A stretch of DNA of 64,000 nt from an uncultured Armatimonadia bacterium (GCA_964390495.1 CAYMIN010000009.1:6155-70154); one strand, 5' to 3'. Shown: positions 345-46,356, counted from the first letter of the stretch. Notes: generated by a model not told the origin, from the letters alone. Numbers and translations are program-made.

Positions 345-1190
345 ATGGAGGTGATCGGACCGACCATGGAAACCGAGAAGCTGGAGGAGTATCAGGAGCT
401 GGCGACCAAGATCCGCGCCCACTGCCTGCACATGACCCATCGCGGCATGAGCGGGCACCTGGGCAGCATGTTGTCCATGGCCGACCTGCTGGCGGTGCTG
501 TACACCAGTATCCTGCAGGTGGACCCGCAGAACCCCGACTGGGACGAGCGCGACCGCTTCGTGCTCAGCAAGGGCCACGGTGGCGCGGCTGTCTATGCGG
601 TGCTGGCGGAGAAGGGCTTCTTCCCGATGGAGTGGCTGAATACCTACTACCTCGACGACGGCAAGCTGTCCGGCCACATCAGCCACCACGTCCCGGGGGT
701 GGAGTTCTCCACCGGATCGCTGGGCCATGGGCTGCCGGTGGCCGTCGGCATGGCACTGGCGGCGCGTAATGACGGCAAGCGGCATCGCATTTTTTGCCTG
801 ATGAGCGACGGAGACTGTAACGAGGGCTCGACCTGGGAGGCGCTGATGTTCGCCGCCCACCACCGGTTGGACAACCTCATAGTGATCGTGGACTACAATC
901 GCGTCCAGGCGCTGGGCAAGATGGAAAATGTCATCGAGATGGAGCCGTTTGCGCCCAAGCTGCATCTCTTCGGCTGGAGCGTGCGAGGCATTGACGGGCA
1001 TGATTACGAGGCTATCGAGACGACGCTGTCGGATCTGCCGTTCGAGCCGGGCAAGCCCTCATGGTTGCTGGCCAGCACCACCAAATGCAAGGGCATCAGT
1101 CGGCTGGAGAACACGGTCGGCAGTCACTACGGCTGTGTGAACGATGACGAACTGGCGGAGGCGCTGGCCGAATTGGGGGTGTCAGAATGA
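345..1190 (+). CDS. transketolase, N-terminal (TPP-binding) subunit of a split transketolase
   Basis: SKGHGGAAVYAVLAEKG and GSLGHGLPVAVGMA motifs. Stop overlaps the start of the next gene (ATGA). Confidence 0.85.
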   Translation: MEVIGPTMETEKLEEYQELATKIRAHCLHMTHRGMSGHLGSMLSMADLLAVLYTSILQVDPQNPDWDERDRFVLSKGHGGAAVYAVLAEKGFFPMEWLNTYYLDDGKLSGHISHHVPGVEFSTGSLGHGLPVAVGMALAARNDGKRHRIFCLMSDGDCNEGSTWEALMFAAHHRLDNLIVIVDYNRVQALGKMENVIEMEPFAPKLHLFGWSVRGIDGHDYEAIETTLSDLPFEPGKPSWLLASTTKCKGISRLENTVGSHYGCVNDDELAEALAELGVSE

Positions 1191-2113
1191 GAAGCGCATT
1201 CAACGAAGAGCTGCTCAAGATCGCCGCACAAGATGACCGCATCTACATGGTGCTGGCCGACATCGGCTATGGCGAGATCGAGCCGTTCGCGGAGGCCTTT
1301 CCCGACCGCTTCTACAACTGTGGGGTGGCCGAGCAGAACATGACCGGCGTCGCCTGCGGTCTGGCTATGGAAGGCAAGATCGCCATCACCTACTCGATCG
1401 CCAACTTCCCGACCCTGCGATGCCTGGAGCAGATTCGCAACGATGTCTGCTACCACGATCAGAACGTCAAGATCGTCATCATCGGCGGCGGACTGGCATA
1501 CGGCTCGCTGGGGGTGTCCCACCATTCCACCGAGGACATCGCCATCATGCGGTCGCTGCCGGACTGTGTGGTGGTGTGCCCGGCGGATATCCAAGAAGCC
1601 AGAGCCGCGACCCATGCCATGATCGAGCATCAGGGGGCCTTCTACTACCGCTGCGGCTATAAGAAGGAGCCCGACCTGCACCAAGGCCAGATTGATTTCC
1701 GCCTCGGCGAAGCGATCCAGGTCTCCGACGGCTCGGATGTTACGCTGATAGGGACCGGCACCGTGACCTACCGGGCCTGGCAGGCGGCGGAACTGCTGGC
1801 CGGCGAGGGCATCAAGGCCCGCGTAATCAGCATGCACACCGTCAAGCCGATAGACCGCGAGGCCATCGTTACCGCCGCCCGGCAGACCGGGGCAATCGTC
1901 ACCGTCGAGGAGCACAATATCTGCGGCGGTCTCGGCGGCGCAGTCGCTGAGGTCATCGCCGAGGCCGGAATCGGCATCCGCTTCAAGATGATTGCGCTGC
2001 CGGACCAGTATGTCCACATCGTCGGGACCCACGAATGGCTGCTGGACTACTACGGCTTCTCGCCCCAGGGCATCGCGAACATGGTGCAGGACTTGTTGGC
2101 GAGCGGAAACTAA
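1187..2113 (+). CDS. transketolase, C-terminal (pyrimidine-binding/C-terminal domain) subunit
   Basis: 4-bp overlap with the upstream subunit. Typical transketolase C-terminal half: FPDRFYNCGVAEQNMTGVA ... KPID. Confidence 0.85.
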   Translation: MRSAFNEELLKIAAQDDRIYMVLADIGYGEIEPFAEAFPDRFYNCGVAEQNMTGVACGLAMEGKIAITYSIANFPTLRCLEQIRNDVCYHDQNVKIVIIGGGLAYGSLGVSHHSTEDIAIMRSLPDCVVVCPADIQEARAATHAMIEHQGAFYYRCGYKKEPDLHQGQIDFRLGEAIQVSDGSDVTLIGTGTVTYRAWQAAELLAGEGIKARVISMHTVKPIDREAIVTAARQTGAIVTVEEHNICGGLGGAVAEVIAEAGIGIRFKMIALPDQYVHIVGTHEWLLDYYGFSPQGIANMVQDLLASGN

Positions 2114-2142
2114 TGGGTACTACATCCCAACGACCACATCCC

Positions 2143-2210
2143 CGACTGCCGCGTGGCTCGGGCTTCCAGCCCGAGGCCGTGCGCAGACGCTAGCGTCGGC
2201 GTGAGAGGAT
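2143..2210 (+). repeat. conserved ~67-nt leader element upstream of E1 alpha, related to the TTCCAGCCCGA repeat family
   Basis: Near-identical to 3206-3272 (actgccgcg..gggc.t.ccagcccgaggc.gtgcgcagacg...cgtcggc.tgagagga). Hairpin ctcgggc-ttcca-gcccgag. Palindrome GACGCTAGCGTC. Confidence 0.6.
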
Positions 2211-2224
2211 AATTCAAAGGAACC

Positions 2225-3196
2225 ATGAAACCGACTGAAGAGCAAATGAAAGCAATGCTGCGGACGATGCTAACCATCCGCGGCTTCGAGGCGACCGCCC
2301 GCGCGCTCTATACGGCTAACTGGGAGAGCGGCAACTTTTTGGGCGCGCTGCATTCTTACGAAGGCCAGGAGGCCGTCGCCACCGGCGCGTGCGCCTGCCT
2401 GAGGCAGGACGACTATGTCTTCAGCACCCATCGCGGCCACGGGCACTTCATCGCCAAGGGTGGGGACATCAAGGCAATGTTCGCCGAGCTACTCGGCAAG
2501 GAAGCCGGCTGCAGCCGCGGGCGCGGCGGCTCGATGCACATGTTCGACCCCGGAAAAGGTCTGATGGGCGGCAACGGCATTGTGGGCGGCGGGATTCCCC
2601 TGGCCCTCGGACCCGCCTTCGCCGCCAACTACCTAGGTAGTGACCAGGTCACCGTCACCTTCTTCGGTGACGGCGCCTCCAGCCAGGGCGTATTTCATGA
2701 GTCGTTCAACTTGGCGGCGCTCTGGGACCTGCCCTTGATCTTCGTCTGCGAGAACAACCGCTATGCCGTGGGTACGCCGGCCTCTCAAGGCATTTCGGTG
2801 CCTAACCTATCGGTTCGCGCCGCCGGCTACGGCTGCCCTGGAGTGACGGTGGATGGCGACGACCCGGTGGCCGTCTATGAGGCGGTCAGTGAGGCCATCG
2901 CCCACGCCCGCGCAGGTAACGGCCCCAGCCTCGTCGAGGCCGTGACCCACCGGCATAGCACACACTGTATGGTTATGCGCGAAACTCGCGAAGAGCCGGA
3001 ACTGGACAAAATGAAGGAGTATGACCCCATCCCCCGCTTCGAGCAGCGCCTGCAGGAAAGCGGCATCATCGGGGCCGACGAACTGACGCAACTCAAAGAG
3101 GAAGTGAGCCAACTCATCGAGGCGGCCGTGGCCTTCGCTGAAAACGCCGCCTTCCCTGATCCTGCGACGGTGGCCGATGGTCTGTGGGTAGGCTAG
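2225..3196 (+). CDS. 2-oxoacid (pyruvate/acetoin-type) dehydrogenase E1 component alpha subunit, TPP-dependent
   Basis: E1 alpha motifs HRGHGH, GGNGIVGGGIPLALG and FFGDGASSQG. AAAGGA RBS 4-9 nt upstream of the ATG. Confidence 0.85.
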   Translation: MKPTEEQMKAMLRTMLTIRGFEATARALYTANWESGNFLGALHSYEGQEAVATGACACLRQDDYVFSTHRGHGHFIAKGGDIKAMFAELLGKEAGCSRGRGGSMHMFDPGKGLMGGNGIVGGGIPLALGPAFAANYLGSDQVTVTFFGDGASSQGVFHESFNLAALWDLPLIFVCENNRYAVGTPASQGISVPNLSVRAAGYGCPGVTVDGDDPVAVYEAVSEAIAHARAGNGPSLVEAVTHRHSTHCMVMRETREEPELDKMKEYDPIPRFEQRLQESGIIGADELTQLKEEVSQLIEAAVAFAENAAFPDPATVADGLWVG

Positions 3197-3205
3197 GCGG
3201 GGCCC

Positions 3206-3272
3206 GAACTGCCGCGCACCCGGGCCTGCCAGCCCGAGGCAGTGCGCAGACGACATCGTCGGCATGAGAGGA
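3206..3272 (+). repeat. second copy of the conserved leader element, upstream of E1 beta
   Basis: Aligns to 2143-2210. Palindrome GACGA-CA-TCGTC carries compensatory changes relative to copy 1. Confidence 0.6.
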
Positions 3273-4259
3273 GAACTTAGAGCATTGGCAAAGACGCGAC
3301 AGGTTGTGTTCGCCCGAGCGCTCAATGAGGCGCTCCGTGAGGAGTTCGAGCGCGATGACAGCGTCTTCCTGGTCGGCGAGGAGGTCGGCGGGATCTTTGG
3401 TGTCACCAGGGGTCTGGACCGGCGCTTTGGTGAAAAGCGGGTGCGCTGCACCCCGATCTCGGAGGCGGCCTTCACCGGACTGGCCGTCGGCGCGGCGATG
3501 GTCGGCCTCCGGCCCATCGTCGAGATCATGTACCTCGACTTCGTCACCGTTTGCTGGGACCAGATCGCCAACCAGGCGGCCAAGCTGCGGTATATGTCCG
3601 GCGGCCAGATCAGCCTGCCCCTGGTAATTCGCGGCCAGCAGGGCAACCTCACCCGCGAGGCCGCCCAACATTCCCAACAGATCGAGGGCTGGTGCGCCCA
3701 AGTACCGGGGCTCAAGGTCGTGATGCCGGCCACCGTCGAGGACGCCAAGGGCCTCCTCAAGTCTGCCATTAGGGATGACAATCCGGTCATATTCGTCGAG
3801 CATCGCGGCCTCTATGACCTCAAGGGGCCTATGCCCAAAGGCGAGTACACCACCCCGCTCGGTGTGGCCAAGGTCCACCGCGAAGGCACCGATATCACCG
3901 TTGTCGCCACATCCCTAGCCTTGCAGAAGGCACTGGCAGCGGCGGAAGCCCTCGCCGATGAGATCAGCGTGGAGGTGGTGGACCCGCGCACACTGGTGCC
4001 GCTAGATACGGAGACGATTCTGCAATCGGTACGCAAGACCGGCCGGCTGCTGGTGGCTCACGACGCCCCGGTGCGGCTGGGCTTCGGAGCCGAAGTCGTG
4101 CGCGCGGTTACCGAAGAGGCCTTCGCAGCTCTGCAGACAGCACCTCGTGTAGTCGGCGGAACCAATCTGCCGATGCCGTATAGCTCGGTGCTGGAGGACG
4201 CTTGCATCCCCAGCGAAGATGACATCACACAAGCTATCCGACAGGTGGTGAAGAGTTAG
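3264..4259 (+). CDS. 2-oxoacid dehydrogenase E1 component beta subunit
   Basis: E1 beta / transketolase-like pyrimidine and C-terminal domains (ALNEAL.EE, FLVGEEVG ... ). Start ambiguous: ATG at 3264 or in-frame TTG at 3285, with GAGAGGAG RBS at ~3266-3273. The aminotransferase start abuts the stop codon. Confidence 0.8.
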   Translation: MRGELRALAKTRQVVFARALNEALREEFERDDSVFLVGEEVGGIFGVTRGLDRRFGEKRVRCTPISEAAFTGLAVGAAMVGLRPIVEIMYLDFVTVCWDQIANQAAKLRYMSGGQISLPLVIRGQQGNLTREAAQHSQQIEGWCAQVPGLKVVMPATVEDAKGLLKSAIRDDNPVIFVEHRGLYDLKGPMPKGEYTTPLGVAKVHREGTDITVVATSLALQKALAAAEALADEISVEVVDPRTLVPLDTETILQSVRKTGRLLVAHDAPVRLGFGAEVVRAVTEEAFAALQTAPRVVGGTNLPMPYSSVLEDACIPSEDDITQAIRQVVKS

Positions 4260-9760: not shown

Positions 9761-10499
9761 CCTAAGCGGCAAAGTGGCGCTGGTGACGGGTGGCTCGCGA
9801 GGCTTGGGCCGGGCCATCGCGGTACAGCTCGCCGAAGCCGGCGCGGAGGTTGCGGTCAATTACCTGCAGAACGCCGCAGCGGCTGAAGAGACCGGTCGCC
9901 TCATCACCGAATACGGACGCCGCTGCATTCTCTGCCAGGCGGACGTGAGCGACCGCGAGGCCGTCAAGGCGATGGTCGAGCAGGTTTCCCAGGAATTGGG
10001 CGGGCCGGATATCCTAGTCAACAACGCCGGCATCATCAGCGACCAGTTCCTCGCCTTCATGAAGCCGGAGCAGTGGGAGAGCGTCATTGCCACCTCCCTG
10101 ACCGGCGCCTTCAACTGCTGCCAGGCGGCCATGCGGCCGATGCTGAAAAAGCGCTGGGGTCGCATCGTCAATATCGCCTCTGATGCCGGCTTGATGGGCG
10201 ACTTGCGGCGCACCAACTACGCCGCCGCCAAGGGTGGTTTGATCGCCTTCACTAAGGCGCTGGCGCGTGAGGTTGTCGCCCAGGGCATTGTCGTCAATGC
10301 GGTGGCGCCGGGTGTCATCGAGACCGACCTGATCGCTGAGATGACCGACAAGCAGCGCGAGCAGATGTGCCAATTGATCCCAGCCGGTCGGTTCGGGCGG
10401 CCTGAAGAGGTCGCTCCCCTCGTGGCATTTCTGTGCTCGCAGCATGCCAATTACATCACCGGCCAGGTCCTCAGCGTTGACGGCGGCCTCCGCATGTAG
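9753..10499 (+). CDS. fabG: 3-oxoacyl-[ACP] reductase-like short-chain dehydrogenase (FabG family)
   Basis: GTG start with a [20 protein letters not shown] and NNAG motifs, YAAAK catalytic YxxxK. 8-bp overlap with the upstream gene. Confidence 0.8.
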
Positions 10500-12428: not shown

Positions 12429-13655
12429 ATGCAGGCCAGGCTGTACCATGTTGCCATAACCGGGCTCGGGGTCGTCAGCCCTTTGGGCAGCGGCGCCAGT
12501 ACCCTCTGGGAGGGTTTGCTGGCCGGCTGTCGCGGTCTCACTAGCCTGACCAAATTCGACCCCACCGGCCTGCGCAACCAGAAGGCCGGCCAGGTTAATG
12601 ACTGGCAATTCGACCCCGCTGAATATGGCCTCCAGCAAGCGCCTGACGAGGCCACCCAGTTTCTGCTCGCTGCGGCGCACGAGGCGGTCGCCGATGCCGG
12701 TCTCGATGACCGTTTGCACCCAGGCGCGGAGCCTGTCGCGCAGGCAGGGGCAGTGCTGGGGACCAACTTCGGCGGCGCTGCTTCGTGGGAGAGCTACATC
12801 AACGGAGTACTGGTCGGCCGGCCCTCACCCACGGCTTTCGAGCAATTTAGCTTCCACGAGGCGCTATCCCTGCTATCCAGCAGCTTCGCCCTCAGTGGCC
12901 CCTGCAGCCAGCTCTCCATGGCCTGCGCCTCCGGAACTGCCGCTATCGGCTACGGAGCCGAGCTGATACGAACCGGCCAGGCCGAGCTGGTGCTGGTCGG
13001 CGGCTACGATGCCCTGGCTCCCAGTATTCTCAGCGGGCTAAGCCTACTCCGCACCATGACCGATGACGACCTCTATCCGTTTTCGGCCAACCGCAGTGGG
13101 ACCCTTTTCGGTGAGGGCGCGGGCGTGCTGGTGCTGGAGAACCTGCAGCGCGCCCACCAACGCCGCGTGCGCTGCTACGGCGAAGTCTTGGGGGCGTGGC
13201 AGAACAACAATGCTTACCACCTGACCGCCCCCGATGCCGGCGGTGCCGGTATGGCACGAGCCTTGCGGGGAGCGCTGCAGGTAGCGGGAATTGCCCCTGA
13301 GGACCTGGATCACATCAACGCCCACGGCACCGGGACAGAGTACCACGATGTGGCCGAGACCGAGGCGATCAAGGCCGTCCTCGGCCCGGCCGCTTACGAC
13401 ATAACCGTGGTGTCCATAAAGGGGGCTATCTCGCATCTGATGGGGGCAGCCGGGGCCGTCGAGGGTGTTGTGACAGCTCTAGCGCTCTTCCATCAGATGG
13501 TGCCGCCTACCACCAATTACGGCGATCCGGACCCGGCCTGTGACCTGGACTACGTTACCACCGGCGCGCGCCGCCAGCCTATCAAACACGCGGCCTCGCT
13601 CTCAGCCGGCATCGGCGGCGATAACGCGTGTGTGGTCCTGGGCCGGCTTATCTAG
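12429..13655 (+). CDS. fabF: beta-ketoacyl-[ACP] synthase II-like condensing enzyme (intact Cys-His-His triad)
   Basis: Active-site Cys in SMACASGTA, HGTGT present (INAHGTGTEYHD), and second His in SIKGAISHLMGAAG. Confidence 0.85.
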   Translation: MQARLYHVAITGLGVVSPLGSGASTLWEGLLAGCRGLTSLTKFDPTGLRNQKAGQVNDWQFDPAEYGLQQAPDEATQFLLAAAHEAVADAGLDDRLHPGAEPVAQAGAVLGTNFGGAASWESYINGVLVGRPSPTAFEQFSFHEALSLLSSSFALSGPCSQLSMACASGTAAIGYGAELIRTGQAELVLVGGYDALAPSILSGLSLLRTMTDDDLYPFSANRSGTLFGEGAGVLVLENLQRAHQRRVRCYGEVLGAWQNNNAYHLTAPDAGGAGMARALRGALQVAGIAPEDLDHINAHGTGTEYHDVAETEAIKAVLGPAAYDITVVSIKGAISHLMGAAGAVEGVVTALALFHQMVPPTTNYGDPDPACDLDYVTTGARRQPIKHAASLSAGIGGDNACVVLGRLI

Positions 13656-13659
13656 CAAC

Positions 13660-13766
13660 GCGTAGCTCGGCCTGCCCTGAGCTTGTCGAAGGACAGGTGA
13701 GAACGCGGTTCACCGCGTTCTCAGCTTCCAGCTCGAGGTCATTGCCGTGATTACACTGTGCCATTT
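13660..13766. repeat. long copy of a dispersed intergenic repeat element with two hairpins
   Basis: Aligns to 43974-44077 over ~105 nt, roughly 80% identical by eye. Hairpins cctgccc..ggacagg and gagaacgcgg-ttca-ccgcgttctc. Confidence 0.7.
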
Positions 13767-13794
13767 CACTCGGGGATAATCCAGACTACAGACT

Positions 13795-14799
13795 GTGAAA
13801 AACGCATCGTCTCAAAACCAGCGCATAGTCATCAGCGGAGCCGCACCGATTGCCTCCGTCGGCATCGGGCGCGAGGACTTCTTAGAGGGCCTGCGCGAAA
13901 ACCGCGCGGGCCTCGGCGCCTCGCAACGCCTGACTGATGCCGGCGGCTTCGCACAGGTGGCGGAGTGCCGCGACTTTGTGGTCGAGGACTATCTGGAGAG
14001 CAAGAAGACCTACCTCGACCGCTGCTCGGAGCTGGCGCTGGCGGCTGCGGCCCTGGCCTTCGCGGACGCCGGACTGGTCTGGTCGGAACTGGATGGCGAG
14101 CGGATCGGCCTATGCCTGGGCACCGCCTACGGCTGTCTCGAATCCATGACCAATCACACAGCGCGGGTGCAGGCCAAGGGCTTGCGTTTCGGCTCGCCGA
14201 TGATCTTCACCCACACAATGCCCAACTCACCCACGGCGCTGGTGGCCATCGAGTACGGTATCCACGGGCCGGCTGGGACCTTTTGCGCCGGCAGCATAGC
14301 GGCGGCCTGTGCGCTGGAGTTCGCCCTGCGCCGCCTCAAGAGCGGAGATGCCGACTTTGTACTGGCCGGCGGCTGTGAGGCACTGAGTGTCGCGCTGCTT
14401 GGCGGCCTGGGCGGCCCCGAGCGACTCGGGCCGGATTTCGTACCGGGTGAGGGCGCCTGCCTATTCGTCCTGGAGCGCATGCACACGGCAGCGGCCAGAG
14501 GTGCTGAGATGCTAGCCGAGATCGCCGCTGTCGGTCTGGCGGTGGCTACCGAAGCCAATCCCGACGCCGCTCTGGACGCCGCGTGCGCGCAAGCCGCTCT
14601 GACCGACAGGCCCGCGATATTCGCCCCGCCCGCCGCATACGGCCACACCTTCGGCACCTCAGTGGCTCTGGACATTTGTGCGGCACTCGGTAGTTTGAAA
14701 TCGGATGCGAGCTGCGATTGCATCGCCATAACCGGCCGCAGCGGCCTTACCGGCACTCATGCGCCGGCCGCTGCTGTCATCATCCGGAGCCTAACATGA
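13795..14799 (+). CDS. degenerate ketosynthase-like protein (KS partner/CLF-like); retains GHxxG His region but lacks the HGTGT motif
   Basis: KS N-terminal RIVISGAAPIASVGIG. Possible Cys in GPAGTFCAGS. No HGTGT, with ~25 residues missing before AAYGHTFGTS. 334 aa versus 408 aa for the FabF-like neighbour. Stop overlaps the start of the E1 alpha paralog. Confidence 0.65.
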   Translation: MKNASSQNQRIVISGAAPIASVGIGREDFLEGLRENRAGLGASQRLTDAGGFAQVAECRDFVVEDYLESKKTYLDRCSELALAAAALAFADAGLVWSELDGERIGLCLGTAYGCLESMTNHTARVQAKGLRFGSPMIFTHTMPNSPTALVAIEYGIHGPAGTFCAGSIAAACALEFALRRLKSGDADFVLAGGCEALSVALLGGLGGPERLGPDFVPGEGACLFVLERMHTAAARGAEMLAEIAAVGLAVATEANPDAALDAACAQAALTDRPAIFAPPAAYGHTFGTSVALDICAALGSLKSDASCDCIAITGRSGLTGTHAPAAAVIIRSLT

Positions 14800-15776
14800 G
14801 CTATCCAGCCAAGGAGTTAATCGCCCATTATCGGCTGATGGTCACCATCAGGGAGTTTGAGGAGGCTCTGGATGACCTCTTCAGTCAGGGACTAATCACC
14901 GGCACCGCGCACTTCTGCCGAGGCCAGGAAGCCTGTGCGGTGGGAGCCGTCGCGGCGCTGGAAGCCTCTGATTTGGTGACATCGAATCATCGCGGGCACG
15001 GCCATTTCATCGCCAAAGGCGCGGAACCGGGGCGGCTGATGGCTGAGCTGATGGGCAAGCGGGCCGGCTATTCCGGCGGGCGCGGCGGCTCCCAGCACAT
15101 GGCTGCCTTTGACCTCGGCTTCCTGGGCTCCAACGGAATAACTGCCGGTATGATACCGATCGCGACCGGGGCCGCAATGACCCAGAAGCTCAAGCAGACC
15201 GGCCGCGTCGTACTATGCTTCTTCGGCGACGGGGCTTGCGCTCAGGGCGCCTTTCACGAGGCGATCAACATGGGGGCGCTCTGGGAGCTGCCTATCGTCT
15301 ATTTCCTTGAGAACAATCTCTACGCAATGAGCACGCATGTCGGCGAGAATTTCAAGATCACGGAGCTCGTGCAGTTCGCTGACGCATACGGTCTGGCGGG
15401 GGTCAGCGTTGATGGCAATGACTACTTCGCAGTGCGAGCGACGGTCACTGAGGCTGTGAGCCTGGCCCGCTCCGGAGCCGGGCCGACGCTCATCGAGGCC
15501 CGCACCTACCGCATGTGCGGACACTCCAAGAGCGATGACTGCGAATACCGGTCTGATGAAGAAGAGCGAACCTGGGCGGCCCGGGACCCGCTGCTAGTCA
15601 TGAAAAGCCGGCTCATTGCCGACAGCATTATGGATGAAGCGACGGCGGCAGCAGCCGAGCAGCGAGCTGCCGACGATGTTGCAACGGCGATTGAGTTCGC
15701 CCGCCAAGCATCCGAACCTGACCCTGATACGCTCACCGAGGGGCTTTTCGCTGCTTCATACCTCAAGGCTCGGTAG
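14796..15776 (+). CDS. second 2-oxoacid dehydrogenase E1 alpha subunit paralog (TPP-dependent)
   Basis: HRGHGHFIAKG, GSNGITAGMIPIATG and FFGDGACAQG motifs. ATGA overlap with the KS-like gene. No cognate beta subunit downstream. Confidence 0.8.
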   Translation: MSYPAKELIAHYRLMVTIREFEEALDDLFSQGLITGTAHFCRGQEACAVGAVAALEASDLVTSNHRGHGHFIAKGAEPGRLMAELMGKRAGYSGGRGGSQHMAAFDLGFLGSNGITAGMIPIATGAAMTQKLKQTGRVVLCFFGDGACAQGAFHEAINMGALWELPIVYFLENNLYAMSTHVGENFKITELVQFADAYGLAGVSVDGNDYFAVRATVTEAVSLARSGAGPTLIEARTYRMCGHSKSDDCEYRSDEEERTWAARDPLLVMKSRLIADSIMDEATAAAAEQRAADDVATAIEFARQASEPDPDTLTEGLFAASYLKAR

Positions 15777-41197: not shown

Positions 41198-41447
41198 AAT
41201 ACAGCGTTCTATATTTAGTTCGGCGCGGGCAGGCTAGATTCCTGCCGGAAAATGCTTCGCCTTTGAGAGAACTATACCCAAATCGTTGCTTCCCTACACC
41301 CCCGAAAACGCGCGGAACAGGCGACTATCCCAGTTCTTCCCAGGTGCTGCACTTCGAGCCCGAAAGCAGGTCTGGCGCTGCCAAGTGGTGAACTACTGTG
41401 TGTCGGCAAGCTCCTACCAATAGCCGGTTACTCACGGGAGGTCTTCC

Positions 41448-42749: not shown

Positions 42750-42925
42750 TAAGCGCAACGCCGGTAGGCACCTTCGTACTGGCGGAGGCGTTCAGCTTCG
42801 ACGGTTTATTTCCCCACGCAGGAGGAATCCCTGTCTTGGTATCGAAGCTAGCCTAAGCACGCGGCCAGTCACAGTGGCCCGTGCTCAGTACCCAAACGTG
42901 TCGCTTTATTCGTAGGAGGTCGCAA

Positions 42926-43954
42926 ATGGAATACCGACAGCTTGGTCGTACCGGTACGCGCGTCTCAAAGCTGTGTCTGGGCACGATGAACTTCGTCGGC
43001 AGCACGGACCTCGATGAGGCCAAGCGCATTGTTGATGAGGCAATTGACGGAGGTATCAATTTCATAGACACCGCCGACTGCTACGCCCGTGGCGGCTCCG
43101 AGGAGTATCTGGGCATGGCCCTGCAGGAGAACGGGCACCGCGACGATGTGGTGGTGGCAACCAAAGCCGTGGCGAACATGGGTGACGGACCCAACGACCA
43201 CGGAGCCAGCCGCTACCATCTCACCCGTGCCGTCGAGGCCAGCCTCAAGCGTCTGCAGACCGACCGCATTGACCTGTTCTACCTCCACATCACCGACATC
43301 TCCACTCCCATTGACGAGATCCTCGATACCCTCGATGTCCTGGTGCGGCAGGGCAAGATTCTCTACATCGGCACCTCGAAGTGGCCGGTGCCGCTGATCA
43401 TGGAGCTGCTGGCGCTGAGCGACAAGCACGGTCTGCCGCGCACCGTCGCCGAGCAGCCCCCCTACAACCTCACCGACCGGCGCATCGAGATGGAGCTGGT
43501 GTGGACCTGCCTGCGCCACGGCATCGGCATCGTGCCCTTCGGGCCGTTGGCAGGCGGCATTCTCAGCGGCGTATATCGCAAAGGTCAGCCGGCTCCCGCA
43601 GGCCATAAGTTCAAGGAAATCGGCCAGCGCGACGGTCACAACCGCTACACCGAAGCGACTATGGACCTAGTCGAGAAGCTGATGCCGCTGGCTGAGGCGC
43701 GGGGCGTGACGCTGGCCGAGTTCTCCACCGCCTGGCTGATGCAGCGGCCGGGGATCACCGCACCGATAGCCGGGCCGCGTACGGTCGAGCACCTGCGCTC
43801 TTCGCTCAAGGCGTGCGAGATCGAGCTGACGCAGGAGGAGTTGGATAAGGTGGATGAGGCCATCCCGCCGGGCACCAATCTGACCAACTACTGCACGCTG
43901 TATGAGCGGATGTGCCGCGCCGTCAACAAGCCCGAGCCGCTGGGGGCGTTCTAA
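42926..43954 (+). CDS. aldo/keto reductase (AKR11/YhdN-like), paralog 1 of 3
   Basis: MEYRQLGRTGTRVS..LCLG, INFIDTADCY, and a C-terminal NADP-binding region. AGGAGG RBS. Confidence 0.85.
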   Translation: MEYRQLGRTGTRVSKLCLGTMNFVGSTDLDEAKRIVDEAIDGGINFIDTADCYARGGSEEYLGMALQENGHRDDVVVATKAVANMGDGPNDHGASRYHLTRAVEASLKRLQTDRIDLFYLHITDISTPIDEILDTLDVLVRQGKILYIGTSKWPVPLIMELLALSDKHGLPRTVAEQPPYNLTDRRIEMELVWTCLRHGIGIVPFGPLAGGILSGVYRKGQPAPAGHKFKEIGQRDGHNRYTEATMDLVEKLMPLAEARGVTLAEFSTAWLMQRPGITAPIAGPRTVEHLRSSLKACEIELTQEELDKVDEAIPPGTNLTNYCTLYERMCRAVNKPEPLGAF

Positions 43955-43973
43955 GCCCGAAGTACCCACCAGC

Positions 43974-44077
43974 GCGTAGCTCGGCCTGCCCCGAGCCTGT
44001 CGAAGGGCAGGTGAGAATGCGTCAGCATTCTCAGCTTCCAGCCCGAGGCCGTTGGGGTGACCACAGTGCGCCGTTTT
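43974..44077. repeat. second long copy of the intergenic repeat element
   Basis: Aligns to 13660-13766. Hairpins cctgccc..gggcagg (perfect) and gagaatgc-gtca-gcattctc, with compensatory substitutions relative to copy 1. Confidence 0.7.
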
Positions 44078-44181
44078 GCTCGCGTTCGCAAAAGCCCACG
44101 GCATCACTGTCAGCATGTTAGCAGAATCTACCTAGCTTCAGTCGGAAACCTGACCGACGCGACAAGAATAAGGAGGCAGTC

Positions 44182-45207
44182 ATGGAGTACCGACAACTGG
44201 GCCGCACCGGAACCAGAGTCTCAGAGCTCTGTCTCGGCTTGATGATTGACAGTCTGACCGATGAACAGACCTTTATAGACATCGTCAATGAGGCGATTGA
44301 TCTGGGCATCAACTTCCTTGACACCGCCGACTGCTACGGCACCGGCGAATCGGAGCGGCGCTTGGGCAAGGCGCTGGCGCAAAACGGCAAGCGCGATGAC
44401 ATCGTGCTGGCGACCAAAGCCGTCGCGGGCATGGGCCCCGGGCCTAACGACCACGGCGCCAGCCGCTATCACCTCTCCCGCGCAGTCGAGGCCAGCCTCA
44501 AGCGCCTGCAGACCGACCGCATTGACCTGTTCTATCTCCACATCGTGGACATCACCACCCCGCTGGACGAGATCTTCGGCCAGCTCGACATTCTGGTCAA
44601 GCAGGGCAAGATCCTCTATGTCGGCACCTCCAAGTGGCCGGTACCGCTGATCATGGAGGGCCTGATGATGCACGAGAAATACGGCTATCCGCGTATCGTT
44701 GCTGAGGAGCCACCTTACAGCCTCTGCGACCGCGGTATCGAGAACGAACTGGTGTGGACCTGCCTGCGCCACGGCATCGGTCTGTGTACGTGGGGACCAC
44801 TGGCCAGCGGCATCCTCGGCGGCGCCTATCGCAAGGGCCAGCCCTTCCCGGAGGGGCATCGCAAGTCAACGGTGGACCCTTCCGAAGACAAGCGCTTGAC
44901 CGAGGGTGCTCTCGACCTGATCGAGAACCTGATCCCGCTGGCCGAGGCCAGAGGCATAACGCTGCCCGACTTGTGTCACGCCTGGCTGCTGCAGCGGCCC
45001 GGCATCACCGCCCCCATCATCGGCGCGCGCAAGGTCGAGTATCTCCAGGCCGCGGTCAAGGCCACCGAGATCGAGCTAACCCAGGAAGAACTCGACAAAA
45101 TTGATGAATTCGCGCCGCCGGGCAGCGCAGTCAGCAACTACTACGACGGCAATGTCTATGCCCGCATGCGCAATGCCATCAACACCGACAACCCGCTGGG
45201 CTACTGA
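44182..45207 (+). CDS. aldo/keto reductase, paralog 2 of 3
   Basis: ~70-75% identical to the flanking AKRs by eye. AAGGAGG RBS. Confidence 0.85.
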   Translation: MEYRQLGRTGTRVSELCLGLMIDSLTDEQTFIDIVNEAIDLGINFLDTADCYGTGESERRLGKALAQNGKRDDIVLATKAVAGMGPGPNDHGASRYHLSRAVEASLKRLQTDRIDLFYLHIVDITTPLDEIFGQLDILVKQGKILYVGTSKWPVPLIMEGLMMHEKYGYPRIVAEEPPYSLCDRGIENELVWTCLRHGIGLCTWGPLASGILGGAYRKGQPFPEGHRKSTVDPSEDKRLTEGALDLIENLIPLAEARGITLPDLCHAWLLQRPGITAPIIGARKVEYLQAAVKATEIELTQEELDKIDEFAPPGSAVSNYYDGNVYARMRNAINTDNPLGY

Positions 45208-45224
45208 GGCCGGCGCACAGCCAC

Positions 45225-45262
45225 TGTCGCGTAGGTCGGGCTTCCAGCCCGACAATGCCGTA
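45225..45262. repeat. short variant of the same repeat family (gcgtaggtcgggcTTCCAgcccgac...)
   Basis: Shares the 5' gcgtag.tcgg and 3' cttccagcccga / caatgccgtaatg blocks with the long copies, but lacks the central ~50 nt. 7-bp stem gtcgggc/gcccgac around the TTCCA loop. Confidence 0.55.
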
Positions 45263-45321
45263 ATGCCAACTCGCTGCACGGACAGACAACCATCAACTCT
45301 CAGCTAGCCAGGAGGAACACC

Positions 45322-46356
45322 ATGGAGTACCGACAGCTAGGCCGCACCGGAACCAGAGTTTCACAGCTTTGCCTCGGCACCATGAACTTCGGCAATGTCA
45401 CCGATGAGCCGACCGCCCACCAGATGATTGATGAAGCTCTCGACGCGGGGATCAACTTCATTGACACCGCCGATTGCTACCAACGGGGCGTCTCGGAGGA
45501 GTTTATCGGCAGGGCGCTGGCCGAGAACGGCAGGCGCGATGACATCGTGCTGGCAACTAAAGCCGTCGCGGGTATGGGCGAAGGGCCCAACGATCACGGC
45601 GCCAGCCGCTACCACCTGTCGCGCGCGGTTGAGGCCAGCCTCAAGCGCTTGCAAACCGAGCGCATTGACCTGTTCTACCTGCACGTCGTGGATATCACCA
45701 CGCCGATGGATGAGATCTTCGGCCAGCTCGACGTGCTGGTCAAGCAGGGGAAGATCCTCTACGTGGGGACCTCGAAATGGCCGGTGCCGCTGATTATGGA
45801 GGGGCTGATGATGCACGAAAAGTACGACTACCCGCGCATCGTCGCCGAACAGCCGCCATATCAACTATGCGACCGCGGCATCGAAATGGAGCTGGTCTGG
45901 ACCTGCCTGCGCCAAGGTATCGGCATCGTCCCGTGGGGACCGCTGGCCTACGGGTTGCTTACCGGAATGTACCGCAAGGGCCAGCCGATTCCCGAAGGCC
46001 ACCGCTGGTCAGGTGCCGACCCCGACGCCAACAAGCGCTTCACCCATGCGGCCTTGGACCTGGTGGAGAAGCTGATTCCCATCGCCGAGGCTAAGGGCAT
46101 TGACCTACCGGCAATGGCACATGCCTGGCTGCAACAGCGGCCCGGCATCACCTCCCCGATCGTCGGCCCGCGCACTATCGAGCATCTACGCGCCGCCCTG
46201 GCGACCACCGAGATCACCTTCACCCAGGACGAACTTGACGCGATTGATGAGGCCATCCCGCCGGGCACGTGGGTAAGCGACTTCTACTTCGGCAACACCT
46301 ACGCCCACCTGGTGCGCTCGATCAATGACCCGGAGGACCCGACCGGATACCATTGA
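45322..46356 (+). CDS. aldo/keto reductase, paralog 3 of 3
   Basis: Same family signature. AGGAGGAA RBS. Confidence 0.85.
   Translation: MEYRQLGRTGTRVSQLCLGTMNFGNVTDEPTAHQMIDEALDAGINFIDTADCYQRGVSEEFIGRALAENGRRDDIVLATKAVAGMGEGPNDHGASRYHLSRAVEASLKRLQTERIDLFYLHVVDITTPMDEIFGQLDVLVKQGKILYVGTSKWPVPLIMEGLMMHEKYDYPRIVAEQPPYQLCDRGIEMELVWTCLRQGIGIVPWGPLAYGLLTGMYRKGQPIPEGHRWSGADPDANKRFTHAALDLVEKLIPIAEAKGIDLPAMAHAWLQQRPGITSPIVGPRTIEHLRAALATTEITFTQDELDAIDEAIPPGTWVSDFYFGNTYAHLVRSINDPEDPTGYH

Follow-up and report, generated by a model that had tools for sequence, protein, structure and literature searches.

The dispersed intergenic repeat described here most probably consists of REP elements of the GTAG-tagged superfamily, carried by an uncultured Armatimonadota bacterium and spread by a RAYT transposase. 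The assignment is drawn from (i) the GT[A/G]G head and its hairpin, (ii) dispersal, (iii) extragenic sites, (iv) inverted doublets in relatives, (v) adjacency to RAYT genes in relatives and (vi) covariation. The family is genuine and statistically solid, and it falls within the established GTAG-REP/BIME kind rather than representing a novel one. The window, that is, the whole stretch of 64,000 nt that was analysed, lies within the 110-kb contig Ga0180431_10000100 of a JGI metagenome (the source sample; the sister sample is Ga0180432). The best named matches of the MutS encoded in the window are Armatimonadota MAGs, with identities of up to 71%.

Copies of the repeat in the window

Five intergenic copies are present in the window: two long (C and D) and three short (A, B and E). 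All are single and lie on the + strand, with no inverted doublet in the window. Each sits in a short spacer flanked by same-strand (+) genes, 11-44 nt downstream of a stop codon, within gene strings comprising E1 alpha/beta, ketosynthase (KS)/KS-like and three aldo-keto reductase (AKR) paralogs.

2140-2219, + strand: copy A, short form in an 80-nt repeat unit, upstream of the E1 alpha gene; the unit's 3' end is GAGAGGA, just upstream of the E1 alpha start codon (2225)
2150-2156, + strand: head of copy A, CGCGTGG
2157-2175: hairpin of copy A, CTCGGGC-TTCCA-GCCCGAG
2186-2197, + strand: second small hairpin of copy A, GACGC-TA-GCGTC
3203-3282, + strand: copy B, degenerate short form, in the E1 alpha/E1 beta spacer
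3213-3219: decayed head of copy B, CGCGCAC
3221-3236: hairpin of copy B, CGGGC-CTGCCA-GCCCG
3250-3261: second hairpin of copy B, GACGA-CA-TCGTC, with a compensatory C:G to A:T change relative to copy A
about 13653-13788, + strand: copy C, long form, between the KS and KS-like genes
13653-13655: TAG of copy C, which is the KS stop codon
13659-13665: head of copy C, CGCGTAG
13666-13670 and 13733-13737: outer stem P1 of copy C, CTCGG / TCGAG
13671-13697: H1 of copy C, CCTGCCC / GGACAGG, one C.A mismatch
13699-13722: H2 of copy C, 10 bp
13724-13732: mini-hairpin of copy C, GCT-TCC-AGC
13788: end of the 3' tail of copy C, ...ATTTCACTCGGGGATAATCCAGACTA
about 43952-44135, + strand: copy D, long form, between AKR paralogs 1 and 2
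43952-43954: TAA of copy D, with which the AKR gene stops and the leader TAAGCCCGAAGTACCCACCAG starts
43973-43979: head of copy D, CGCGTAG
43980-43984 and 44043-44047: outer stem P1 of copy D, CTCGG / CCGAG
43985-44011: H1 of copy D, CCTGCCC / GGGCAGG
44013-44032: H2 of copy D, 8 bp
44034-44042: mini-hairpin of copy D
about 44135: end of tail 1 of copy D (GGCCGTTGGGGTGACCACAGTGCGCCGTTTTGC...)
45228-45253, + strand: copy E, canonical 26-nt REP unit, between AKR paralogs 2 and 3 (genes 44182-45207 and 45322-46356)
45228-45234: head of copy E, CGCGTAG
45235-45241: 5' stem of copy E, GTCGGGC
45242-45246: loop of copy E, TTCCA
45247-45253: 3' stem of copy E, GCCCGAC

The core motif TTCCAGCCCGA, with at most one mismatch, occurs at six sites in the window where 1.47 are expected, and none of 100 shuffles reaches six or more. 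Five of the six sites are family members; the other, at 41353 with one mismatch, has neither head nor hairpin and is treated as a probable chance match. Copy E matches the cross-genome consensus, taken from 64 headed copies, without a mismatch.

The two long copies align end to end (13650-13790 against 43962-44100, 86% column identity), as the initial annotation had reported. The repeat is present where that annotation placed it, at 13660-13766 and 43974-44077, but the units exceed these limits on the coordinates listed above. Compensatory base changes had been claimed for both hairpins. In H1, C and D share the 5' arm CCTGCCC and diverge in the 3' arm alone (GGACAGG versus GGGCAGG), so that copy C simply carries a C.A mismatch and nothing is compensated. 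In H2, GAGAACGCGG/CCGCGTTCTC versus GAGAATGC/GCATTCTC does contain one true pair change, C:G to T:A, with a stem 2 bp shorter. Equally real is the swap from C:G to G:C noted between short copies, CTCGGGC/GCCCGAG at 2157-2175 versus GTCGGGC/GCCCGAC at 45235-45253.

Several features of the surrounding genes can be recorded alongside. The 80-nt units of copies A and B are 78% identical, and each closes with GAGAGGA(T/G) shortly ahead of the start codon of its downstream gene, E1 alpha or E1 beta; judged from the sequence, these units may be a source of ribosome-binding sites for the two genes. The three AKR paralogs stand in tandem (42881-46356) and share 67-82% nucleotide identity over long stretches, with a long copy in the first spacer and a short copy in the second: either the spacers received independent insertions after gene duplication, or they diverged later. 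The region 12429-15776 contains the KS gene, then a KS-like gene (N-terminal domain only) and then an E1 dehydrogenase alpha-like gene, the other E1 alpha/beta set being located at 2225-4259 (region 1187-4259). The KS locus is also found in an independent assembly, Logan contig SRR14699969_112059 (L002), which ends at 10056, 30 nt past the KS stop codon and exactly at the repeat start. This break indicates that the repeat disrupts short-read assemblies.

The 26-nt unit and its spread

REPs are defined by a GT(A/G)G head and a GC-rich palindrome, present in abundance, with a cognate rayt gene between two inverted copies (Nunvar 2010; PMC2817692). The core unit of the present family is 26 nt long: CGCGT[A/G]G-[G/C]TCGGGC-TTCCA-GCCCGA[C/G], or CGCGTAGGTCGGGCTTCCAGCCCGAC. 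Its palindrome is a stem of 7-8 bp with a TTCCA or TCC loop, in which paired changes are retained. In the window, the head reads CGCGT[A/G]G in copies A, C, D and E and is decayed in B.

When one GTDB genome of each species was scanned for exact matches to the hairpin TCGGGCTTCCAGCCCGA, more than 113 loci were listed, and inexact copies were sought by a Hamming-distance scan. Among the exact matches listed, 64 of 125 carry C-G-C-GT[A/G]G-[G/C] directly 5' of the stem; the other half or so are single, chance-like matches within genes of unrelated bacteria. When 64 copies are chosen for GT[A/G]G at positions -5 to -2, the preceding positions -8 to -6 are C, G and C in 57, 51 and 59 of them, and beyond this extended head the flanks of headed copies show no conservation. 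The closing pair is Watson-Crick in 68 of 72 headed copies elsewhere (G-C in 55, C-G in 13) versus 21 of 61 headless matches.

Headed copies are multi-copy, among the matches listed, in Armatimonadota MAGs (three Ca. Zipacnadia bins, E05-054, MAG056 and CSMAG_2444), in WS1 and in the unclassified 'bacterium CSMAG_1176', which has a 3' tail in common with the window. In one Ca. Zipacnadia MAG, exact copies number at least 14, at no fewer than 10 loci; E05-054 has at least eight loci and CSMAG_1176 at least five, again among the matches listed. Headed copies are also found on megabase contigs of Poribacteria and in other phyla. The units are arranged as inverted doublets at L018, L071 and L053 and as tandem arrays at L057, L049 and L010.

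Larger arrangements are seen in related MAGs. At L057 (4716-4861, Ca. Zipacnadia MAG), five REP-like units follow one another head to tail with a 30-nt period. In the variants at L019 (about 7195, - strand), L102 (357-440), L014 (4346-4420) and L058 (about 2470-2560, - strand), the loop region holds one or two motifs of the type CTGAGC(N2-3)GTCGAAGG, at times as an inverted pair; the same motif is the 13-nt H1 loop of window copies C and D.

RAYT genes flanked by hairpins of the same design

With E. coli RayT as tblastn query against all fetched loci, a match is obtained in L068, from a Fimbriimonas MAG. The open reading frame has the HUH and Y motifs IMPNHVHAVV and YVLENPVKAGL and scores 26 bits against Pfam Y1_Tnp (cut-off 23) and 76 bits against NCBIfam REP_Tyr_transpos (cut-off 80). 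This RAYT-family gene lies between inverted copies of a 19-mer hairpin identical to that of the present family, CTCGGGCTTCCAGCCCGAG, at 606-624 and 1297-1315, and here GTGG stands 5 nt from the stem, not directly adjoining it. The L068 protein has 1423 homologs at E <=1e-10, many of them named RayT by JGI, and four were inspected together with their DNA:

L178 (Planctomycetota): GTGGCATGCGCTTCCAGCGCATG and three similar hairpins, inverted across the gene
L177: GTGGCATCGGCTTCCAGCCGAT
L185: arrays of GTAGCGCCGCC-[TTCCT/ATCCT]-GGCGGC
L179: the same hairpin design with other loops

The flanks of L178, L177 and L185 follow the design GTGG/GTAG-C-stem-TTCCA/TTCCT/ATCCT-stem. From these flanking hairpins it follows that head, stem and TTCCA loop together represent the cognate REP type of the L068 RAYT clade. 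The initial annotation had called the repeat 'REP/MITE-like', a description borne out by the GT[A/G]G head and GC-rich palindrome, the dispersed and extragenic copies, and the RAYT-family genes flanked by hairpins of the same architecture.

E. coli RayT has no tblastn match in the window itself, and tblastn finds no RAYT of the L068 clade in about 0.5 Mb from the source population. The sole RAYT found in that 0.5 Mb, P0246 on Ga0180432_10006123 (L183), belongs to a second clade, and the RAYT homologs P0100 and P0087 come from samples other than the source sample. The window's own genome would be expected to have a cognate RAYT of the L068 clade.

In gene calls, homologs of the L068 clade are often fused to host genes (L177, 2253-3942; L068, 1-2106; proteins P0001, P0030, P0039, P0040, P0049 and P0081). 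P0001 combines Y1_Tnp with Sua5_C and adjoins the gene for the Sua5 N-terminal part, and several others combine AdoMet_dc with Y1_Tnp. At L068, the RAYT and both flanking hairpins are contained in a single 700-codon open frame. Such calls could reflect insertion of a RAYT plus its REPs into genes, or read-through by gene calling in GC-rich DNA.

The long form and its four-way junction

A metagenome scan for the junction TCTCAGCTTCCAGCYCGAGG gave 60 loci and at least 58 distinct long copies. The source sample accounts for at least 21 of these, the window's two included, spread over at least 14 contigs (about 1.6 Mb); the remainder were recovered from its sister sample and three others. The long form is the 26-nt unit with two further hairpins, H1 and H2, inserted between CTCGG and GCTTCCAGC of the 5' arm. 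The layout is constant: the head CGCGT[A/G]G, the outer stem CTCGG, H1 (CCTG...CAGG), a single T, H2 (GAGAA...TTCTC), a single A, the mini-hairpin GCT-TCC-AGC and the outer stem CCGAG. Most long copies fold into a four-way junction.

The helices are highly variable within this fixed frame. The inner pairs of H2 vary, and several copies have a nested hairpin, GGGGTACCCRCNCC-NNNN-GGNGTGGGTCA, in it. H1 exists in at least four unrelated stem versions:

Version 1: CCTGCCC/GGGCAGG, with a 13-nt loop
Version 2: CCTGACCTGCGC/GCGCAGGTCAGG
Version 3: CCTGAGCTTTGT.../...ACAAAGCTCAGG
Version 4: CCTGAGCGTGG.../...CCACGCTCAGG

In an alignment of 32 long copies, 90.9% of cells are paired, against 25-44% in slid controls, and changes on both sides affect nine pairs in 57 cells. 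The covariation score of the long-copy helices is reached by none of 500 shuffles, and H1 covaries strongly across the wider family. Partial copies occur too: L131, L136 and L150 are truncated, and a half-copy followed by a full copy, tandem copies and nested copies are common.

The initial annotation had allowed that the repeat might reduce to a local duplication if it had no further copies and no supported covariation; both are present, in 58 distinct long copies and in the shuffle result above. Local duplication is ruled out by the dispersal of the family across contigs and genomes.

A second hairpin family

The hairpin nested in H2 belongs to a second family, GGGGTACCCRCNCC-NNNN-GGNGTGGGTCA (GGGGTACCCRC...GTGGGTCA), which occurs both alone, at other sites of the same contigs, and within H2 loops, with the same boundaries in either setting.

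Sites of the second family: L133 (750-770); L141, L160 and L163 (three copies); L183 (3035-3090)
Nested in long copies: L118, L121, L128, L135, L149 and L152

The second RAYT clade is represented by an open reading frame of L133 (Ga0114930, 157-792), which at 80.4 bits reaches the NCBIfam REP_Tyr_transpos cut-off, and by P0246 on L183. On either side of its members stand CGGAGGGGCCGAAT / ATTCGGCCCCTCCG segments in inverted orientation, within which the GGGTRCCCRC hairpin is found. This suggests that the H2-nested module has its own transposase, and it lends some support to a model in which the mosaics are built as hairpins of one family insert into those of another. In the 5' arm, H1 and H2 occupy the space that separates CTCGG from GCT, with 0-1 nt at the junctions. 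It is possible, though on balance doubtful, that the long form as such preserves a history in which discrete hairpin modules entered a REP by nested insertion at specific sites.

Leader, tails and the larger unit

Around the long copies the repetition extends to a unit of about 140-330 nt, whose leader and tail are conserved. In many of the copies the leader, TA followed by GCCCGAAYAATTCACMAAA, is directly 5' of the head, and two alternative tails are shared among the copies. Tail 1 is about 125 nt long and ends in ...TCATGAATAATCCAGGC followed by TA; tail 2 is carried by L119, L122, L125, L132, L143 and L155. That tail 2 is the end of a multi-copy gene is ruled out: the convergent neighbours differ (alcohol-dehydrogenase-like, methyltransferase-like and others). 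The larger unit is a BIME-like mosaic.

These ends raise the question of whether the long unit is a classical MITE derived from a DDE transposon (e.g. IS630/mariner-like), with the REP hairpin a passenger or a later insertion. The consensus ends of the leader (TA followed by GCCCGAAYAATTCAC...) and of tail 1 are inverted repeats at 13 of 17 positions, and TA is present at both ends of most full copies. The leader of L156 matches its reverse-complemented tail with z = 5.6. In copies C and D, as at L126, L135 and L153, the upstream gene also uses the terminal TAG or TAA as its stop codon, and REP ends that supply TAG stop codons are already described for GTAG REPs (PMC3733652). Against this, the inverted-repeat test on individual copies is not significant in 12 of 14, the alternative tail 2 exists, the 26-nt unit spreads alone with unconserved flanks in many genomes, and neither a DDE transposase nor an empty insertion site was found. 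A MITE origin of the long unit is thus unlikely.

Location, orientation and the level of action

All 58 long copies are intergenic. Of the 29 copies between unidirectional genes, 18 are sense and 11 antisense; nine copies lie between convergent and three between divergent pairs. Short copies likewise occur in both orientations relative to genes. With long and short copies pooled, the head-first orientation downstream of a co-oriented gene prevails by 63 to 29, about 2:1, a bias that could stem from a single-strand transposase inserting strand-specifically or from some selection at the RNA level.

The placement and structure of the copies could also be read as those of a primarily functional cis-acting RNA, a four-way-junction structure of 3'UTRs and intercistronic regions that governs mRNA decay, processing or read-through, with its multiplicity the outcome of selection for the RNA role. 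Such a role would fit the invariant junction nucleotides beside hypervariable covarying helices, the 2:1 sense bias, and the position of the copies always after stop codons and never within genes. E. coli REPs in 3'UTRs or between cistrons do act as barriers to decay (stabilisers) and as partial attenuators or terminators (bioRxiv 10.64898/2026.03.23.713779).

The base pairs themselves point elsewhere. A selected RNA is expected to tolerate G.U pairs on one strand only. Among about 1570 pairs, G.U is found 43 times on the + (element) strand and 34 times on the - strand; G.U is thus equally rare on both, as for palindromes maintained at the DNA level, and the sequence data favour a DNA-level element. 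About one-third of the copies are antisense to their neighbours, truncated, tandem and nested copies are common, and transposase genes are flanked by the same hairpin. Rfam gives no match at the gathering score over the whole window and none at E <=10 for 13600-13850. A primary role as a cis-acting RNA is accordingly very improbable, and the 'small structured RNAs' of the initial annotation are not favoured as the primary nature of the family in view of both orientations relative to genes, the symmetrically rare G.U and the lack of an Rfam match. By analogy, an RNA-level side effect of the REP elements on operon expression is plausible.

Rho-independent terminators, the other function that had been suggested, are hardly credible: stable GC-rich hairpins do lie closely downstream of stop codons, but none of the five window copies has a T-run 3' of its stem, a terminator scan reports none of the five, and four of the five stand between closely spaced same-strand genes that are seemingly co-transcribed.

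Proposed mechanism of spread

The most probable reading, REP elements spread by RAYT, can be set out as a mechanism modelled on the HUH Y1 enzyme systems of E. coli, Stenotrophomonas and Marinomonas (PMC3479197, PMC8266576). The basic unit would be a 26-nt DNA hairpin that can fold as a single strand. By analogy with these systems, a RAYT/TnpA-REP, a monomeric HUH Y1 transposase, would bind the folded single-stranded hairpin, read the GTAG head (for the choice of cleavage site) and the stem, and cut and rejoin the strand. Units would in this way spread in trans as non-autonomous elements. Complementarity is presumably kept both by the need of the enzyme for a hairpin and by self-correction of palindromes.

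Copies that are transcribed would probably form RNA hairpins that shift the ratio of upstream to downstream expression, as E. coli REPs do. In the window, the ratios that may be affected are E1 alpha versus E1 beta, KS versus its partner, and those among the three AKR paralogs.

Relation to known elements

The closest known systems are the GTAG-tagged REPs, among them the Stenotrophomonas SMAG/REP, Thioalkalivibrio GTAGGTCGGCCTTCAGGCCGAC (a listed REP example in PMC2817692) and Haemophilus GTAGGGTGGGCTTCAGCCCACC elements (PMC2817692, PMC3733652, PMC8266576). Di Nocera 2013 describes 24 GTAG families in eight phyla, with long self-complementary loops, association with other palindromes and positions between unidirectional and convergent genes (PMC3733652). 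Like these, the present family has a GT[A/G]G head directly 5' of a perfect GC-rich stem of 7-8 bp with a short loop, about 22-26 nt in total. It is multi-copy and extragenic in unidirectional and convergent spacers, has an end that can supply TAG, and forms inverted dimers in some genomes, with RAYT genes between inverted copies (here in relatives).

It differs in its extended conserved head CGCGTAG, in the recurrence of one 26-mer in several phyla, in its Armatimonadota host (a phylum absent from the published surveys compared) and in the many copies of the window's lineage that have two inserted hairpins and form a four-way junction. REPs usually exceed 100 copies per genome; the window's 64 kb hold five, and about 1.6 Mb of source-sample contigs at least 21 long ones.

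The modular mosaics of REP hairpins and short conserved motifs resemble the BIMEs of enterobacteria and the GTAG-3 and GTAG-14 REPs. In GTAG-3 and GTAG-14, the loops can accommodate additional pairing over as much as about 27 bp (PMC3733652); the extra modules described here are instead in the 5' arm, with junctions of 0-1 nt. The existence of at least four unrelated H1 stems, and the ability of H2 to nest a hairpin of another family, set the present mosaics apart from BIMEs as well as from GTAG-3 and GTAG-14. With IS200/IS605-derived miniature elements and REPINs (PMC3116915), the family shares non-autonomous hairpins, whose mobility is presumed to depend in trans on a single-copy HUH Y1 transposase. 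The inverted doublets at L018 and L071 are REPIN-like, whereas the window copies are singlets, and unlike IS200/IS605-derived elements there is no subterminal pair of left-end and right-end hairpins that bounds a defined cargo.

The repeat had initially been thought not to be described. The kind of element has been described since 2010-2013; the sequence family itself, and REPs of Armatimonadota, were not found in the literature searched. Nor did that literature contain a relevant publication on the core 15-mer, the H1 loop motif or the peptide read-throughs, and the text and supplements of Di Nocera 2013 (PMC3733652) are without the TTCCAGC core or GTAGGTCGGGC.

Significance

The basic picture of REPs is unchanged by the present family. 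To our knowledge, work on REPs and RAYT transposases has been confined almost entirely to Proteobacteria, and the family extends the REP class to Armatimonadota, with one 26-nt unit common to several phyla. If the long form does record nested insertion, REP hairpins would be preferred targets of RAYT-type insertion, Armatimonadota genomes would hold natural sequence evidence of how REPs and BIMEs are constructed, and the four-way junction might itself serve as an RNA or DNA structure. The family offers dozens of natural variants with fixed junction bases and swapped or nested helices, useful for finding what the transposase reads. The repeats also break metagenome assemblies and, located within operons, may tune the relative expression of neighbouring genes.
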